Source: Escherichia phage PP01
Reading direction: 5' to 3' (one strand)
Length of the DNA stretch: 64,000 nucleotides
Sequence record: NC_054930.1
The position numbers and the translations under genes are program-made. Shown piece by piece: positions 31,771 to 37,086 of the stretch (its first letter is position 1; the number at the start of each line of letters is the position of its first letter). A model generated the notes under the pieces. That model did no database searches. It was not told the origin of the DNA and worked only from the letters and a program-made list of their open reading frames with translations.

Positions 31771-32244
31771 TTATTTGAACGATTTAACGTACTGAATAGA
31801 ACCTTTACTATTCACAAAGGCAATTTTACCATTTTTGTTATACATGGTAGCAGTACGTTGATAGCCATAAGTTTGTTTACCAGATTGATAACCAACTAAT
31901 GCAAAATTATCTTCACCCATTTTATTCTGTTTAGCGCGAATGCGTTCATGACCATGTGCCATAAGAACCTTAGCATCACCAGTTGCAATGGATCGACGAG
32001 TTTTTTCATCTTCAACTGTATTAACAAAGTCGTCAAATGAATCAAATTTAGCATGAGATTTATTATACAGTTTTCCATCTACTGCATAATTATATCCTTG
32101 TACATCCATCTCAACTTCTGTACCATCATCTAATACAGCAGTAATTTTCTGTCCTTTTTTAAATTTCAAAAGATCAGTAAAAGATTCAGCAATAATTTGA
32201 GAATTAATAGCTGCTTCAGTAATAAATTCTTGATATGTTTTCAT
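31771..32244 (-). CDS. Internal (head-packaged) protein with capsid-targeting leader, 157 aa
   Basis: N-terminal MKTYQEFITEA matches the T4 IPII/IPIII capsid-targeting sequence; located beside e like the T4 ipII/ipIII genes. Confidence 0.7.
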   Translation of the reverse strand: MKTYQEFITEAAINSQIIAESFTDLLKFKKGQKITAVLDDGTEVEMDVQGYNYAVDGKLYNKSHAKFDSFDDFVNTVEDEKTRRSIATGDAKVLMAHGHERIRAKQNKMGEDNFALVGYQSGKQTYGYQRTATMYNKNGKIAFVNSKGSIQYVKSFK

Positions 32245-32260
32245 GTGTATCCTTTAATTT

Positions 32261-32578
32261 TTATTCTTTAGGGAAGTTTTTAGAATATGCATCATAAAGC
32301 TTATTTCCAATACGGCGGAAAACTCTAGCCGCAAAACGATTTTCTGGGTTTTTAATCATGATTTGCATCATATAAGTACCCGCGTCAGAAAGAGCTTCTT
32401 CATAGTACCCGTTAATTTCTTTAAGAGTCCTACGTTTACCGCCAGGACCATCAACAGTGATTTTCCATTTACCTGTAGAAGTGCGACTTGGCGGCTCAAC
32501 TTGTTCAATCCAGATATAACCGCCTTCTACACGTTGTCCTGCAGCAGATTCTGCAATAAATTCTTGATAGGTTTTCAT
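32261..32578 (-). CDS. Internal (head-packaged) protein with capsid-targeting leader, 105 aa
   Basis: N-terminal MKTYQEFIAESA; early promoter upstream. Confidence 0.7.
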   Translation of the reverse strand: MKTYQEFIAESAAGQRVEGGYIWIEQVEPPSRTSTGKWKITVDGPGGKRRTLKEINGYYEEALSDAGTYMMQIMIKNPENRFAARVFRRIGNKLYDAYSKNFPKE

Positions 32579-32629: not shown

Positions 32630-33635
<1,006 letters not shown>

Positions 33636-33654
<19 letters not shown>

Positions 33655-33998
33655 TCACTCACAAACTCTTTCATTGATTCATTTTCAATATAAGACATGT
33701 AGCTATTATATTCTTTTAATTGTATTTTGTAATCCTTTTTTCTTTGCCAATTTATTTTAAAATTATCATAATGAAAATATAACATGGTACCAAAGAATGA
33801 AAATAATGAAATAATTTTAGTATAGTGAAGTTCACTCCAAACTTCTGTTATATTTACTGTGCCGTCGATGTTTAAAATAAGACAGTCAATTAACAATCCA
33901 AAAAGACTACCCGCAAGAGCTGCAGCCAACGCCACAGCAAAAATTAAAAATGACTCAGGAAGCGAATATTTGGCTTTATTTAGTTTTGGCTTTTGCAT
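33636..33998 (-). CDS. Small two-helix membrane protein, 120 aa (membrane paralog 1)
   Basis: Hydrophobic helices FLIFAVALAAALAGSLFGLLIDCLIL and IISLFSFFGTMLYF; basic tail WQRKKDYKIQLKEY...MKEFVSD. Confidence 0.55.
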
Positions 33999-34393
33999 CG
34001 TGATTCCTTAACAAATTTCATAATTTCATCAAATTCATACGCAGCAAGTTTAAGCTGATATTCCTTTTTAATCTTTTTACACTGTGCTTTCCAATCACGT
34101 ACGCGTTTACGATAATGCCTTCCTTGATACCAGTATCCTACCCAATTTACAGGTACTAATAAAAATGGAACTATTAATGGAAGAATTAGCATTAATACAA
34201 GTATTTCGCCAGAATCAATATCAGTCATAACATCTAAAACACCTCCAATAATCAATAGAATTACAAATGATATGAGTATAACAGGACCTATTAATACATC
34301 AGTAGAAATTAGCTGGCGCTTTAATTCATACTTCAAAGGTTTACTTGGAAGGTATAGTGATGGCTTTGACATATTCTCTACATTCCTTAACAA
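33980..34393 (-). CDS. Small two-helix membrane protein, 137 aa (membrane paralog 2)
   Basis: Same architecture and similar tail (KKIKKEYQLKLAAYEFDEIMKFVKE) as 33636..33998. Confidence 0.55.
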   Translation of the reverse strand: MLRNVENMSKPSLYLPSKPLKYELKRQLISTDVLIGPVILISFVILLIIGGVLDVMTDIDSGEILVLMLILPLIVPFLLVPVNWVGYWYQGRHYRKRVRDWKAQCKKIKKEYQLKLAAYEFDEIMKFVKESRCKSQN

Positions 34394-34949
34394 ATTTTTC
34401 TAGTAATAAATCGCTTTCAAAATTAGGATTTTCCACGAATTTATCAAAAAGATCATCAACGATAGTTAAGATATTCTTTTTATTAAGAATACGCTTATTT
34501 TCATATTTTGTTTCAGAATCAACTATAAGAGTAAAGAAATATTTCTTGCCCCGAAATTTTACAGTAGTATCAATATAGAATAAATTTGACTTTTGTAAAT
34601 TACGTTTAAACCATGCATCACTTAAACTATAAACGCCGAGATAATCATAATCGTCGTTTAAATAACAGACCGTCCATTCAGGAGAAACAAAATCAGTAAA
34701 TTCAACGTCAAAATCGCATGTTAATAAATGAATTGATTCAATGCTGTTAATAAGTATTCCAGGACGTATTAAAGACTTTTTACCTCTAGAAAATCTTCCA
34801 GAAAGACTTTCATCAGTTTCATATGAAGAACCCCAATAATAATTACGCCCTTCTGCCATACGTTTAAGAGCATTTAGTAATTGGTCTGGAACATCAACCT
34901 GTCTTTGGAACTCTTCAAACATTGAATTGAAATCACTTTGCATTTTCAT
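34341..34949 (-). CDS. Hypothetical protein, 202 aa
   Basis: ORF track. Confidence 0.55.
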   Translation of the reverse strand: MKMQSDFNSMFEEFQRQVDVPDQLLNALKRMAEGRNYYWGSSYETDESLSGRFSRGKKSLIRPGILINSIESIHLLTCDFDVEFTDFVSPEWTVCYLNDDYDYLGVYSLSDAWFKRNLQKSNLFYIDTTVKFRGKKYFFTLIVDSETKYENKRILNKKNILTIVDDLFDKFVENPNFESDLLLEKFVKECREYVKAITIPSK

Positions 34950-34968
34950 TCCTATTTACTCCAAGTAA

Positions 34969-34984
34969 TAGGGGCCGAAGCCCC
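34969..34984 (-). terminator. UUCG-tetraloop hairpin
   Basis: aggggc-cgaa-gcccct between two genes. Confidence 0.5.
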
Positions 34985-34990
34985 TTATCA

Positions 34991-35584
34991 TTATTTCAGA
35001 GAATTAATATATTCCTGAACATCGGCAGAGGTAGTTTCAACCCCAGAAATATTACCATTAAAGGTTTCAACTCGAGCAAGGGTATCTTCAATATCAACCT
35101 TAGTCAGTGCTGCAATTTCAACTACATCATCAGCAGTACTAATTCCAAGGGCATTTGCTGCGCGAGTTTCACGGATATATTCCAATTTAACTGCGAGTTC
35201 TTGACGAGCATCATCTAACTCAACTACTTTCTTGGCGATTTCAATTCGCATTTCAGCATAACCGTCAGCTTTAGTAGTCAACTGCTCAGCTGTTCGACGA
35301 TATAGTAAACCGAGTTTAGCATGCATTGTTACATCTTGACCTTCGGAAAGAAGTTTACGAATTTCACGCTCTTTTGATTCGGCTTGTCGATTCTTTTCGA
35401 CAATAAGTTCACGAATACGCTTTTCTTCATTAATAGATTTAACGGAAGCAGTTTTTAGATCTTTAATCTTATCAAGTAGTTTTGCTGCCGCAGCAGTATA
35501 CTGTTCTTCAACAGATAGATTTTTAGCCATAGCAGAACCAAGTTTAGTGCGAATAAACTCAACAATTTTCTTCAGTGTGTTCAT
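34991..35584 (-). CDS. Coiled-coil protein, 197 aa
   Basis: ORF track; long heptad-rich helical regions; no enzymatic motif seen. Confidence 0.55.
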
Positions 35585-35640
35585 AGTATTTCCTTAGGTT
35601 GGTATAATTAGATAATATCACGTTTTAATAGATTGTAAAC

Positions 35641-35976
35641 TTATTCTTCGTCTAGCTCGTCGATAAAGACGTTGATGGCCTCGATAACGGCATCATTGAT
35701 AGCCAATAAAATAAAATCATCGTCAGTACCTTTAGAAGATTCTAAAGCATTGATATATGCTTGGTTGGCGAGTTCCCAAGCCTTTTTAAAATAAGGAGCT
35801 TCATCATCAGGACAAATATCCCGCACGCCTTCAAAGATACGTTTGGCATAATCTAACACCCATTGTACAGGCATGTTTTGAGAACGTTCGTTAAACTCTT
35901 TAAAGTCCTTAGATTCAAAAAGCTCTTCAGGATAATTATTTCTATTACAAAAAGCTTTACTAAAGTTACGTTTCAT
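35641..35976 (-). CDS. Hypothetical acidic protein, 111 aa
   Basis: ORF track. Confidence 0.5.
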   Translation of the reverse strand: MKRNFSKAFCNRNNYPEELFESKDFKEFNERSQNMPVQWVLDYAKRIFEGVRDICPDDEAPYFKKAWELANQAYINALESSKGTDDDFILLAINDAVIEAINVFIDELDEE

Positions 35977-36032
35977 AATGTTTTCCTCATTTGTATAGGC
36001 TCATAATATCTCAATCATGAGCCTATGTAAAC

Positions 36033-36308
36033 TTATTTCATATTATTGAAATATTCTTCTGCGATTTCGTCGTTATCATGGTAAACTTTAGAAGACAGTT
36101 TAACATAACTTTCAGCAGTGAACATGTTAATCACAACCTTTACAGTATACCACTGACCGTCTTCATTGCCCATTACCGCATAAGTTTCAAACATCGGATG
36201 ATCAGGACCGATAACTTTAATATCATTCACTGTACGACCGAAATCTTCTGAAACACATTTCATAAAGAAGTTGAACAGTTCGCCGTAATTATCCATTTCG
36301 TTCTCCAA
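36033..36308 (-). CDS. Hypothetical protein, 91 aa
   Basis: ORF track; early promoter directly upstream. Confidence 0.55.
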   Translation of the reverse strand: MENEMDNYGELFNFFMKCVSEDFGRTVNDIKVIGPDHPMFETYAVMGNEDGQWYTVKVVINMFTAESYVKLSSKVYHDNDEIAEEYFNNMK

Positions 36309-36334
36309 GTTGTTTTCTGTATCAGTAGTTGATA

Positions 36335-36395
36335 GTTGTATAGTACCATGGAAGAACAGGGATGTAAACAGTTTTGTGAAAAATTTTTAAAAAAT
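36335..36395 (-). promoter_or_regulatory. T4-type early promoter
   Basis: Plus strand gttgtatagtaccatgg...gatgtaaacagttttgtgaaaaattttt. Confidence 0.65.
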
Positions 36396-36505
36396 TTTAG
36401 AGAATTCTAGGGTCAGGAGGGGCAATTAAAAGGTAGGATAATATATTATAAAGGGTATAAACCAAATGATGCCTAGAGAGGCCCGGAAAGGCCTAGATAC
36501 CAAAA

Positions 36506-36529
36506 AGCCCCAACCTTTCGGCTGGGGCT
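36506..36529 (-). terminator. Rho-independent terminator hairpin (repeat copy 1)
   Basis: agcccca...tggggct stem with a U-run on the minus transcript; near-identical copy at 37063-37086. Confidence 0.6.
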
Positions 36530-36536
36530 AAGAATG

Positions 36537-37010
36537 TTATTTGATTTGTTTAGCAGACCAAATGCGGTCTTTAATAATTTTTTGGATGTCTTCAACATAC
36601 TCTAGGTCATGAGCATGTGGATTATCTTTGAAACTATAAGCACGAGCTAGCTTTTGGCCTTCAGTTTTGATTACTAAAAGCTCTTTAAGGATAGCTTCAT
36701 ATCTGGAGATAATTCCTTTAACAATATTTTTTTCTTGTGCAGCTTTAGGATCTGCTTTAGGAGCAGGTTTACCCGAAGCCTTTGCAAAAGCAGCGCCAGT
36801 AGCAACTAGACTTTTCCAGGCCATACTAACCGCATTTCCTGTAAATCCTTCTGCTTTCATGCCGCGAGCAAATTGGAATCGCGATTCGTCAGAAGCATCT
36901 TTATAAGAATATTTACCCGCTGCAATGGCTGCTTTTGCGACAGCTTGAATTTCGGTGCTAGATGCTTCATTTAACACCGCTTCATTTAAAAATTGAGTAT
37001 ATGATTTCAT
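36537..37010 (-). CDS. Putative internal-protein-like gene with capsid-targeting-like leader, ~158 aa
   Basis: ORF track gives 36537..37187; start moved to internal MKSYTQFLNEA (resembles MKTYQEFIAEA), which has an AGGAAA ribosome-binding site and a TATAAATA late promoter ~40 nt upstream; Ala/Lys-rich basic protein. Confidence 0.55.
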   Translation of the reverse strand: MKSYTQFLNEAVLNEASSTEIQAVAKAAIAAGKYSYKDASDESRFQFARGMKAEGFTGNAVSMAWKSLVATGAAFAKASGKPAPKADPKAAQEKNIVKGIISRYEAILKELLVIKTEGQKLARAYSFKDNPHAHDLEYVEDIQKIIKDRIWSAKQIK

Positions 37011-37048: not shown

Positions 37049-37056
37049 TATTTATA
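37049..37056 (-). promoter_or_regulatory. Late promoter (TATAAATA)
   Basis: Plus strand tatttata, reverse complement of TATAAATA, located between the terminator hairpin and the 158-aa gene's start. Confidence 0.6.
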
Positions 37057-37062
37057 CTAAAA

Positions 37063-37086
37063 AGCCCCAACCTTTCGGTCGGGGCT
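37063..37086 (-). terminator. Rho-independent terminator hairpin (repeat copy 2), 3' of the tRNA/stable-RNA block
   Basis: agcccc...ggggct stem with a U-run on the minus transcript. Confidence 0.6.

Follow-up and report, generated by a model that had tools for sequence, protein, structure and literature searches.

A PspA/Vipp1-like early protein and a shared C-terminal tail motif in the e.3-e.6 region of T4-type phages

The leading gene of an early four-gene region in Escherichia phage PP01, the counterpart of T4 e.6, encodes a diverged member of the PspA/Vipp1(IM30)/ESCRT-III superfamily, as shown by profile comparison and by its predicted fold. The proteins encoded behind it, one soluble (e.5) and two membrane-bound (e.4 and e.3), end in a common tail motif. 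We see an even chance that the e.3-e.6 region represents a phage-borne, Psp-like membrane-maintenance module that is expressed before replication. In the literature covered, coverage of which was incomplete, no published link of T4 e.6 to PspA or to an array of tails was found; a PspA-like prediction for the PHROG that includes e.6 is already in print for a Kuttervirus (2022, PMC9409062).

Gene identity, gene order and expression

The window is the whole 64,000 nt stretch of Escherichia phage PP01 (NC_054930.1) that was analysed. It is assigned to Tequatrovirus and shares ~96% nucleotide identity with T4. Four minus-strand ORFs, all of which are present where a preliminary description of this DNA had placed them, correspond gene for gene to T4 e.3, e.4, e.5 and e.6. 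The statement of that description that none of them matches a T4 protein is thus wrong. Transcription proceeds in the order e.6, e.5, e.4, e.3 with the PspA-like gene in the lead. The genes and the adjacent signals are:

34991..35584, minus strand: e.6, 197 aa, first gene of the putative module, PspA/Vipp1(IM30)/ESCRT-III-superfamily protein by profile and model
34341..34949, minus strand: e.5, 202 aa, soluble alpha/beta protein with C-terminal tail, directly 3' of e.6 and its conserved partner
33980..34372, minus strand: e.4, 130 aa from the ATG at 34372, two-TM protein with variant tail
33636..33998, minus strand: e.3, 120 aa, membrane protein with C-terminal tail
35612..35639, minus strand: sigma-70-like promoter match just upstream of e.6 (TTTACA, 16 nt, TATTAT, with TG), a consensus match alone
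34968..34988, minus strand: hairpin GGGGC-UUCG-GCCCC in the gap from e.6 to e.5, not followed by a U-run

For e.4 a longer ORF of 137 aa (33980-34393) would begin with TTG, while the ATG at 34372 is backed by the T4 annotation and by the PHROG profile. Its overlap is 32 nt with e.5 and 19 nt with e.3. A phmmer search of the rest of T4 found no paralogues of e.3-e.6. Direct family scans of the four proteins gave nothing usable from Pfam and PADLOC, and from PHROGs only 'unknown function', the term under which e.2 to e.8 of T4 are listed as well (PMC11879866 supplement). Among 1,105 T4-type and related phage records e.6 is near-universal, being 100% identical in several Tequatrovirus records and ~98-99% identical in most others. 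Its homologues there are annotated as hypothetical or, which is misleading, as 'host specificity protein'.

In T4, all four genes belong to the early RNA class and their products appear in mass spectrometry data (PMC9697503 supplements). Sigma-70-like promoter matches are located upstream of the genes in the window and no late-promoter box was found there; the candidate promoter of e.6 agrees with the early class of its RNA in T4. The genes had been described as early, and this holds. We regard early expression as established, along with the gene identities and the pairing of e.6 with e.5. The hairpin between e.6 and e.5 probably serves to stabilise the RNA and not to terminate transcription. 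When e.2 to e.8 are knocked down, fitness in the laboratory is unimpaired (PMC11879866 supplement), hence any role of these genes is conditional.

Relation of e.6 to PspA, Vipp1 and the ESCRT-III superfamily

The structure of e.6 was predicted with AF2 (mean pLDDT 74.7). The model shows helices at residues 3-22, 25-80 and 86-145, followed at the C-terminus by short predicted helices at 156-161, 165-175 and 186-196. The pLDDT amounts to 81-94 over residues 31-130, to 75 over 131-140 and to 46-58 over 141-180. Two elements of the model correspond to PspA and Vipp1:

35519..35578, minus strand: e.6 residues 3-22, N-terminal helix predicted to be amphipathic and basic, resembling alpha0 and putatively membrane-binding
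35150..35512, minus strand: e.6 residues 25-145, predicted long helical hairpin equivalent to alpha1 and alpha2/3, i.e. the ESCRT-III core, aligned to Vipp1/PspA

Helix 3-22 aligns with residues 1-22 (alpha0) of Vipp1 and PspA. Its hydrophobic moment is 0.45 at a net charge of +4, comparable to the moments of 0.57 and 0.42 for the N-termini of Vipp1 and PspA, respectively. The core hairpin typical of ESCRT-III proteins is present in the predicted structure. The 197-aa product had been characterised as a long-helix coiled-coil protein; it is indeed predicted to be almost wholly helical, but the model shows a helical hairpin instead of one long coiled coil. Alignments to PspA and Vipp1 end near residue 146-180. 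Because the C-terminal third is of low confidence and the protein is shorter than PspA, alpha4 and alpha5 of e.6 are uncertain.

Searching the model against the PDB with Foldseek returned Vipp1 on all of ranks 1-8 (best E 3.7e-4, probability 1.0). Below these, archaeal CdvB, CdvB2 and PspA were matched, and the lower list includes many unrelated helical proteins. The narrow e.6 profile (A1) reaches Vipp1 at an E-value of ~1.4, so that widening was needed. The widened profile (A2) comprises 40 sequences, including remote members from a search of a representative library. Against the PDB it matches Vipp1 with an E-value of 8.6e-5 (residues 1-146 against 1-147), and eight of its nine best matches are Vipp1 or PspA. 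The HMMER match of A2 to Vipp1 scores 24.4 bits with a compositional bias term of 16.5. For the e.6 family and enterobacterial PspA, hhalign matches 168 columns colinearly, starting at residue 1, with an E-value of 8e-5 (probability 61%). The e.6 protein of the window itself has no match to PF04012 (PspA_IM30), even at E-values up to 1. Two distant members of its family, P0065 and P0066, reach 35.1 and 39.0 bits with PF04012, above the cutoff of 33.9, and match the e.6 profile with E-values of 1e-21 and 3e-20, respectively. Distant members moreover exhibit PspA-like N-termini, e.g. MGILSRIKEFL and MSIFQRLKSIF.

Long helical proteins are prone to spurious matches, a caveat that applies to the e.6 homology as well. 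Were e.6 merely a generic coiled-coil protein with a compositional likeness to PspA/Vipp1, the lack of a direct Pfam match for the window protein, the large bias term in the HMMER score and the unrelated helical proteins further down the Foldseek list would all fit. We consider this most improbable, given that four independent methods concur on PspA/Vipp1, that every alignment begins at residue 1 of both partners and fits the helix boundaries, that two family members lie above the curated Pfam threshold and that distant members carry PspA-like N-termini. The preliminary description had suggested a profile search of the 197-aa protein against membrane-remodelling families. This search matches the protein to PspA/Vipp1/ESCRT-III. 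The membrane-directed function that had been proposed for the locus is plausible.

In common with the PspA/Vipp1(IM30)/LiaH family (PF04012, the bacterial ESCRT-III branch), e.6 displays a predicted amphipathic helix at the N-terminus with a helical hairpin of ~120 residues behind it, colinear similarity of sequence and profile from residue 1 and its best structural matches within that family. In both cases genes for small membrane proteins come next. In contrast to these proteins, e.6 is phage-encoded, measures 197 aa instead of 222-267, is divergent and of low confidence in its C-terminal third and possesses conserved motifs of its own, including one of 17 residues and a C-terminal Y-x-x-S-L-K. 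Unlike PspA, the window protein by itself remains below the Pfam threshold. Since phage early promoters drive its transcription, e.6 needs no regulator of the PspF type.

The closest published case is Gp_125 of Salmonella phage SeF3a, a Kuttervirus. This protein (phrog_1203) was predicted by HHpred to be a PspA homologue, with a hypothetical anti-Abi function (Gendre et al. 2022, PMC9409062). Gp_125 and e.6 share both PHROG and protein family. Genes for a membrane protein and for a small TM protein whose tail is related follow Gp_125 as well. In that study Gp_125 was viewed as a peculiarity of a few Kutterviruses, with no link to T4 e.6 or Straboviridae and no mention of partners or a tail motif.

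A C-terminal tail motif on soluble and membrane proteins

Two strong hydrophobic segments are found in e.4 (TMs at about 27-48 and 56-78). The segment charges of +3/-4/+9 fit a predicted N-in/C-in topology, according to which the strongly basic C-terminal segment is cytoplasmic. In e.3 a strong TM at 17-43 is accompanied by a weaker second hydrophobic segment at 60-77 (mean hydropathy of ~1.3 for residues 61-76, estimated by hand). The two-helix topology assigned earlier to both proteins hence applies to e.4, and is likely but less secure for e.3. Neither e.5 nor e.6 contains a hydrophobic segment, and the 202-aa e.5 is soluble as had been described.

BLASTP aligns e.3 with e.4 over the full length (E = 0.001), and hhalign of the ortholog profiles gives an E-value of 4e-5 over 42 columns after TM2. 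The basic C-terminal tail that had been noted for both is thus shared above chance. Outside the post-TM tail, no homology among e.2, e.3 and e.4 was detected by hhalign. Since detectable homology is confined to the tail, paralogy of e.3 and e.4 is shown for this cytoplasmic part but not for the transmembrane part, to which it had been extended.

The tail follows the pattern Phi-[EDN]-x-F-[IV]-x-x-C-R and is common to e.3, e.4 (as a variant), e.5 and T4 e.2. It is encoded at these sites:

34377..34403, minus strand: e.5 tail LEKFVKECR, residues 183-191, strict form, within predicted helix 181-196
33998..34024, minus strand: e.4 tail IMKFVKESR, residues 117-125, variant with Ser for Cys and a Cys one residue past the Arg
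33648..33674, minus strand: e.3 tail MKEFVSDCR, residues 109-117, strict form
33645..33653, minus strand: TGCAGGAAA (Cys-Arg-Lys), recombination junction of an in-frame e.2 deletion, from comparison of the e.3/e.2 3' ends with T4T and teqdroes

The PSSM score of the e.4 variant lies in the top 0.2% of the null. T4 e.2 is absent from the window, i.e. was lost, and the recombination at the junction gave e.3 the e.2-type ending CRKLK.

Tail proteins were defined by the motif at a distance of up to ~20 residues from the C-terminus and by a gene position downstream of an e.6 homologue. In 40 loci the strict form F[IV]xxCR occurs within the last 20 residues of 89 out of 434 ORFs between e.6 and nudE, as compared to none of 532 ORFs upstream. 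The ORF immediately 3' of e.6 carries the motif in its last 22 residues in 36 of the 40 cases. Among the 310 ORFs of the window the motif is restricted to e.3 and e.5 together with the e.4 variant, and it is absent from the 803 ORFs in the rest of T4. None of the 40 loci lacks a tail protein, and one or more membrane-anchored ones are encoded in 34; the remaining six, which are of the Aeromonas type, exhibit soluble tail proteins only within the flank covered. The number of tail proteins ranges from 2 to 5 per locus, and number and sequence differ strongly between related phages. In carriers with two TMs the motif is located ~33 residues past TM2 in a basic segment, which implies that the tail is cytoplasmic.

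At the invariant positions of the tail, all six Arg codons, both Cys codons and both Phe codons are in use. This variety indicates that selection acts on the protein. The distance from the motif to the stop codon varies from 0 to 15 residues. A signal at the DNA level, namely a Shine-Dalgarno sequence for a coupled next gene (TGY-AGG-AAR), was rejected on account of both the codon variety and the variable distance to the stop. From the sequence comparisons, we regard the tail as established with respect to its reality, its specificity and its selection at the protein level. An essential chemical role of the conserved Cys (metal, disulfide, lipid) is unlikely, as it is replaced by Ala in Ackermannviridae and by Ser in e.4. 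The tails were also considered as mimics of the conserved C-terminal helix of e.6, and this was rejected: the tail PSSM ranks e.6 C-termini merely in the top 21-34% of the null.

In Pseudotevenvirus and Ackermannviridae, proteins encoded after the e.6 homologue contain MEKFIHSCKK, VESIVDRARTR, VLQIVDKARKR, IQKIVEQARKE or IDSIIKHARSR, with scores in the top 0-6% of the null set. The form beside the e.6 homologues of Ackermannviridae is degenerate, Ile and Ala replacing the Phe and Cys of the T4 group. Divergent orthologues of e.5 number 38. When the tails are removed, e.5 proteins still group into a single family, whose place is invariably the one behind e.6. Adjacency of e.6 and e.5 is invariant across the 40 loci. 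At the same time e.5 diverges fast, and genes are gained or lost through recombination in the tail-coding repeat.

Tandem duplication alone could account for the clustering of tail-bearing genes. A connection between tail and e.6 is not required if the tail is a helix for self-association, a degron or targeting signal for a host protease, chaperone or insertase, or a remnant of duplication, with e.6 acting alone. This reading draws on the facts that tandem duplication naturally leaves paralogues adjacent, that the tail-coding repeat is itself a substrate for recombination and that the e.6 C-terminus is unlike the tail, for which reason mimicry of e.6 is unsupported. We hold it to be unlikely, as no fewer than two unrelated scaffolds bear the tail (soluble proteins of the e.5 family and two-TM proteins), as its degenerate form lies beside the e.6 homologues of Ackermannviridae although the neighbours are otherwise dissimilar, and as e.6 and e.5 are invariantly adjacent in 40 loci.

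Possible function of the region

By analogy to PspA and Vipp1, we infer that e.6 would attach to the inner membrane on its cytoplasmic side via its amphipathic N-terminal helix and polymerise through the helical hairpin. The polymer may stabilise or reseal the membrane and thereby preserve the proton-motive force (PMF) of the host, whose own stress response can no longer be induced after the shut-off of its transcription by T4. The tail, a short cytoplasmic motif of amphipathic character, could be a common docking or assembly element on soluble e.5 and on membrane-anchored e.4 and e.3, plus e.2 in T4. It would join the membrane anchors and the soluble partner to e.6 or to each other, in the way PspB/PspC or LiaI act with PspA or LiaH. 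The physiological role may consist in general maintenance of membrane and PMF, in protection against abortive infection that collapses the PMF, or in control of lysis timing.

In E. coli (PspB/PspC) and B. subtilis (LiaI), small membrane proteins act as recruiters or regulators of PspA or LiaH (see also PMC11237479). Like them, e.3 and e.4 are small proteins of the inner membrane; their genes lie close to one of the PspA family, and their cytoplasmic segments could serve for binding. They differ by the lack of sequence similarity, by forming a variable array and by a tail that is also present on a soluble protein, and their role as anchors is a proposal by analogy. None of the PspB, PspC, LiaI-LiaF-TM and Toastrack families was found beside e.6, and e.3, e.4 and e.5 have no significant Pfam family. 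The layout of the phage locus, with its small membrane proteins, is hence analogous to that of a classical Psp/Lia operon, whereas the neighbours are not homologous.

The preliminary description had favoured superinfection exclusion or injection blocking. In this case e.3 and e.4 would be the effectors and the neighbouring soluble and helical proteins would be unrelated or accessory. As small, early inner-membrane proteins they do fall into the same general class as T4 Imm, and Imm, Sp (superinfection exclusion) and rIIA/rIIB (membrane integrity versus Rex) are likewise early T4 proteins, which by annotation act at or on the cell envelope. Nothing specific points to exclusion, however: BLASTP detects no similarity of e.3 and e.4 to Imm and Sp (best E 0.24 over 14 residues), and conservation between e.3 and e.4 lies in the cytoplasmic tail and not in the periplasmic loop. 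Moreover the tail is common to soluble e.5 and tied by synteny to a PspA-like gene in two phage families, which points to a joint function at the cytoplasmic face. We therefore consider exclusion very unlikely.

A device against abortive infection, in which e.6 specifically neutralises effectors of host or prophage defence that kill through permeabilisation of the inner membrane (Rex-, AbiZ- or other pore-forming ones) and the variable tail-bearing membrane proteins serve as adaptors or decoys for different effectors, is a more specific version of the membrane-maintenance reading and does not contradict it. Such a function was put forward for the same PHROG in a Kuttervirus (PMC9409062). It would go along with the dispensability of the genes on the laboratory host and with an arms-race-like pattern, i.e. 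2-5 tail proteins per locus, fast divergence of e.5 and recombination in the repeat. On the other hand, e.3-e.6 are not known to counter any defence system, PADLOC matches none of them and the near-universality of e.6 fits housekeeping equally well. In this specific form the idea appears rather improbable to us.

More generally, Straboviridae and, in degenerate form, Ackermannviridae may carry a self-contained viral ESCRT-III/PspA system in which variable, fast-evolving adaptors sharing one short C-terminal docking helix recruit a polymer-forming e.6 to the inner membrane or organise it there. We propose this tentatively, as a possibility that is less probable than its opposite. If true, the Phi-x-x-F-[IV]-x-x-C-R helix would represent a novel type of motif for interaction with ESCRT-III proteins, and lytic phages would possess an unrecognised route to control membrane integrity, PMF, lysis timing or membrane-targeting immunity.

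The assignment of e.6 brings tailed phages into the ESCRT-III superfamily, surveys of which had not considered phages. T4 is the reference lytic phage, and the PspA/ESCRT-III reading hands the genes of its e.2-e.8 region a testable function. Non-essential genes together with a defined short motif provide a tractable system for membrane targeting of the PspA type. It could also help to explain in what way a phage that blocks host gene expression keeps the host membrane energised until programmed lysis.

Gene content and layout of the e.3-e.6 region

The window derives from a T4-type phage. Over positions 33000-36400 it shares 96-97% identity with many Tequatrovirus genomes, and with T4 the value is 95.7%. 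Gene names were assigned by comparison with the T4T annotation. The preliminary description characterised the proteins accurately; its statement that none matches a T4 protein is wrong, as all four ORFs are T4 genes.

Features of the region
33636-33998, minus strand: e.3, 120 aa
33980-34372 (from ATG), minus strand: e.4, 130 aa; the ORF list runs on to a TTG at 34393
34341-34949, minus strand: e.5, 202 aa
34991-35584, minus strand: e.6, 197 aa
34968-34988: GGGGC-UUCG-GCCCC hairpin between e.6 and e.5, very stable tetraloop, no U-run after it

Transcription runs from e.6 through e.5 and e.4 to e.3, and the genes are tightly packed with overlaps of 32 nt (e.5/e.4) and 19 nt (e.4/e.3). Downstream of them lie nudE and the lysozyme gene e; upstream are e.7 and e.8 together with the tRNA/segB region. 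The listed start of nudE is a TTG at 33654 (151 aa, same as in the T4 annotation). Since an alternative ATG (start MKTLSAG...) shares bases with the stop codon of e.3 (ATGA at 33636-33639), translational coupling to e.3 and a start five codons later than listed are suggested.

Consensus matches to sigma-70-like promoters are located directly upstream of e.8, e.7 and e.6, and no late-promoter box was found before e.3-e.6. The hairpin probably acts in RNA stability or processing, not as a terminator. In T4, e.2-e.8 all show early RNA (PMC9697503, supplementary files 4 and 6); the proteins were detected early (e.4, e.5), in the middle phase (e.2, e.6) or late (e.3) (PMC9697503). The module genes are co-transcribed early in infection. 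Genome-wide knockdown in a laboratory host revealed no fitness effect for any of e.2-e.8, whose function is listed as unknown (PMC11879866, supplementary file 15).

Further upstream, a 157-aa ORF (36537-37010, minus strand) starts with MKSYTQFLNEA, a capsid-targeting type of N-terminus that the internal proteins (32261-32578 and 31771-32244; MKTYQEFI...) also have. The ORF is preceded at 39 nt by a late-promoter box (TATAAATA, 37049-37056) and enclosed by two near-identical AGCCCC...GGGGCT hairpins (37063-37086 and 36506-36529). The e.8-segB interval holds rnaC, rnaD and tRNA-Arg in T4T and is ~550 nt longer in the window. The region has the appearance of an additional cassette with an internal-protein gene.

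Family assignment of e.6

Throughout the T4-like phages, e.6 has homologues with 48-98% identity. An exhaustive profile search over 1.84 billion representatives returned only 45 clusters, all of ~200 aa, and a Pfam scan of the window protein gave no match. The AlphaFold2 model built from the family alignment (mean pLDDT 74.7) consists of a helix (residues 3-22) and a long hairpin of helices 25-80 and 86-145 (pLDDT 81-94 over residues 31-130), followed by short, poorly defined helices in a C-terminal third that is uncertain. Using Foldseek against the PDB, the best eight matches are Vipp1 (E from 3.7e-4), with archaeal CdvB/CdvB2 and PspA ranking below.

The preliminary description had proposed comparing the 197-aa protein with membrane-remodelling coiled-coil families by profile search, and the outcome is positive. 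The narrow family profile reaches Vipp1 at E ~1.4 only. Widened with remote members down to 18% identity (alignment A2), it finds Vipp1 as top PDB match (E 8.6e-5, residues 1-146 on 1-147) and Vipp1 or PspA in eight of the nine best matches, whereby HMMER scores for A2 contain a large bias term. In an independent comparison of the family profile with that of enterobacterial PspA, the alignment starts at residue 1 and spans 168 columns (E 8e-5, probability 61%). Five of 40 members match Pfam PspA_IM30 by themselves, two of them with scores (35.1 and 39.0 bits) above the curated cutoff of 33.9. Moreover, the N-terminal helix resembles alpha0 of PspA and Vipp1 in its amphipathic (moment 0.45) and basic (+4) character. 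We consider it highly probable that e.6 belongs to the PspA/Vipp1/ESCRT-III superfamily; a generic coiled coil is hardly credible beside these matches.

A PspA-like assignment has already been reported for phrog_1203, the PHROG of both e.6 and Gp_125 of Salmonella phage SeF3a. Gendre et al. 2022 obtained it for Gp_125 by HHpred, suggested an anti-Abi role and took the protein as a feature of a few Kutterviruses (PMC9409062). In BFVD, an Acinetobacter phage protein already bears the name 'PspA/IM30 family protein'. The name PspA appears on none of the 1,105 phage records with e.6 homologues. Many GenBank and UniRef records call e.6 (34991-35584) 'host specificity protein', a name for which our analysis of e.6 found no support and which looks like a propagated misannotation.

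The C-terminal tail motif

Neighbouring ORFs were mapped in 40 loci around e.6 relatives. The ending Phi-[E/D/N]-x-F-[I/V]-x-x-C-R, here called the tail, is shared by the ORF right after e.6 and by numerous small two-TM ORFs beyond it. Between e.6 and nudE, 89 of 434 ORFs have its strict form (F[IV]xxCR within the last 20 residues), versus 0 of 532 upstream of e.6. Of the 40 ORFs that immediately follow e.6, 36 have F[IV]xxCR within 22 residues of the C-terminus; the remaining four are truncated or show an FxNYCI variant. Among 310 six-frame ORFs of the window only e.3 and e.5 have the strict form; relaxing it brings in e.4 and, with a poorer match, one short plus-strand ORF. None of the 803 ORFs in the remaining ~107 kb of T4 has the strict form. 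Every locus holds at least one carrier (2-5 where the e.6-nudE interval is complete), and 34 of 40 hold at least one that is membrane-anchored. Carriers are either soluble (45 distinct proteins, 73-290 aa) or membrane proteins, of which 35 have two predicted TMs (median length 124 aa). In the two-TM group the motif follows TM2 by ~33 residues within a basic segment, which places the tail in the predicted cytoplasmic part. Across 94 distinct instances codon use at the invariant positions is varied (TTT/TTC 63/31, TGC/TGT 51/43, all six Arg codons) and the distance to the stop ranges from 0 to 15 residues. Hence selection acts at the protein level rather than on an embedded ribosome-binding site.

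e.3 and e.4 had been described as paralogous two-helix proteins with a conserved basic tail. In e.4 two strong hydrophobic segments are found, and the charges of its N-terminus (+3), loop (-4) and C-terminus (+9) point to an N-in/C-in topology. In e.3 a strong segment is accompanied by a weaker one, and none was found in e.5 or e.6. e.3 and e.4 align end to end with 22% identity (BLASTP E 0.001), their orthologue profiles over 42 columns after TM2 (hhalign E 4e-5), and T4 e.2 and e.3 over the final 19 residues (E 6e-6). The tail is real, and it is the only part for which homology is demonstrable. Superinfection exclusion by e.3 and e.4, as formerly proposed, is quite improbable: they lack similarity to the T4 exclusion proteins Imm and Sp, and their conserved part is cytoplasmic.

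Loci and sites related to the tail-protein array
33645-33653: e.2 deletion junction, TGCAGGAAA (Cys-Arg-Lys), common to the e.3 and e.2 tail-coding ends
L043 6650-7383, L047 4479-5365, L048 4694-6191: partner genes of Ackermannviridae e.6 homologues
L008-L041, e.6 homologue to nudE (e.g. L009 7953-9112, L013 7450-8489): runs of ORFs with W-[V/I]-S-S-S-x-x-C or SSC endings

e.2 is missing from the window and present in T4 and teqdroes as a two-TM tail protein (compared regions L001 3136-3623 and L002 1135-1623). The 3' end of the window e.3 is e.3-like through TGCAGGAAA and then e.2-like, ending CRKLK instead of CRKIK, so e.2 was removed in frame by recombination inside the shared tail-coding sequence. 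This loss shows how the tail-protein array changes copy number.

Remote e.6-family members belong to Ackermannviridae, e.g. phiEa2809 and Vi01-like phages. Here, and in one Pseudotevenvirus, a related C-terminal element recurs in proteins encoded directly downstream of the e.6 homologue (MEKFIHSCKK, VESIVDRARTR, VLQIVDKARKR, KGIIEQARKE, IQKIVEQARKE, IESILARARGQ, IDSIIKHARSR). These elements score in the top 0-6% of the null distribution with the tail matrix, most without the Phe and Cys that dominate it. The Cys-to-Ala change argues that the residue at position +4 is a small one at an interface and not a reactive cysteine. After the Ackermannviridae homologue come two single-TM proteins, one of ~170-250 aa and one of 55-70 aa, both ending in I-[IVL]-x-x-A-R. 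Partner architecture in T4 differs from this pair, whereas a related tail occurs in both.

In loci L008-L041 the hyperplastic interval between the e.6 homologue and nudE also harbours small ORFs (65-130 aa) with the SSC-type endings (GAWVSSSALC, GGWVSSSAEC, KIWYPSSC), a second C-terminal-motif family that is unrelated to the tail and absent from the window and T4.

Proposed working of the module

Taken together, the module combines a PspA-family gene, a conserved soluble partner, variable small inner-membrane proteins and one shared cytoplasmic C-terminal motif. Surveys of ESCRT-III evolution and of the Psp system leave phages unmentioned, and no paper linking PspA or ESCRT-III to T4 was found in the literature searched, of which coverage is incomplete. 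As far as can be told, the following are new: the connection of the family with T4 e.6, the near-universal presence of e.6 in Straboviridae, e.5 as its fixed partner and the array of tail-tagged partners.

The tail may be a common docking or assembly helix by which the anchors and e.5 are joined with e.6 or among themselves. Direct docking on e.6 is a tentative proposal; a function unrelated to e.6 (degron, targeting signal, self-association helix or duplication remnant) seems less likely still. PspB/PspC and LiaI would be functional analogues of the tail-bearing anchors, not homologues.

An anti-abortive-infection role, already proposed for the Kuttervirus homologue (PMC9409062), would be a specific form of a phage Psp-like membrane module and is rather unlikely. 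For the Psp-like module as such we see an even balance. By analogy with PspA, Vipp1 and LiaH, e.6 would bind the inner membrane via alpha0, polymerise via its hairpin and stabilise membrane and proton-motive force. T4 blocks host transcription, and the infected cell would therefore be unable to raise its own Psp response. Meanwhile the phage would puncture the envelope, load the membrane with its own proteins and need an energised membrane until holin triggering.
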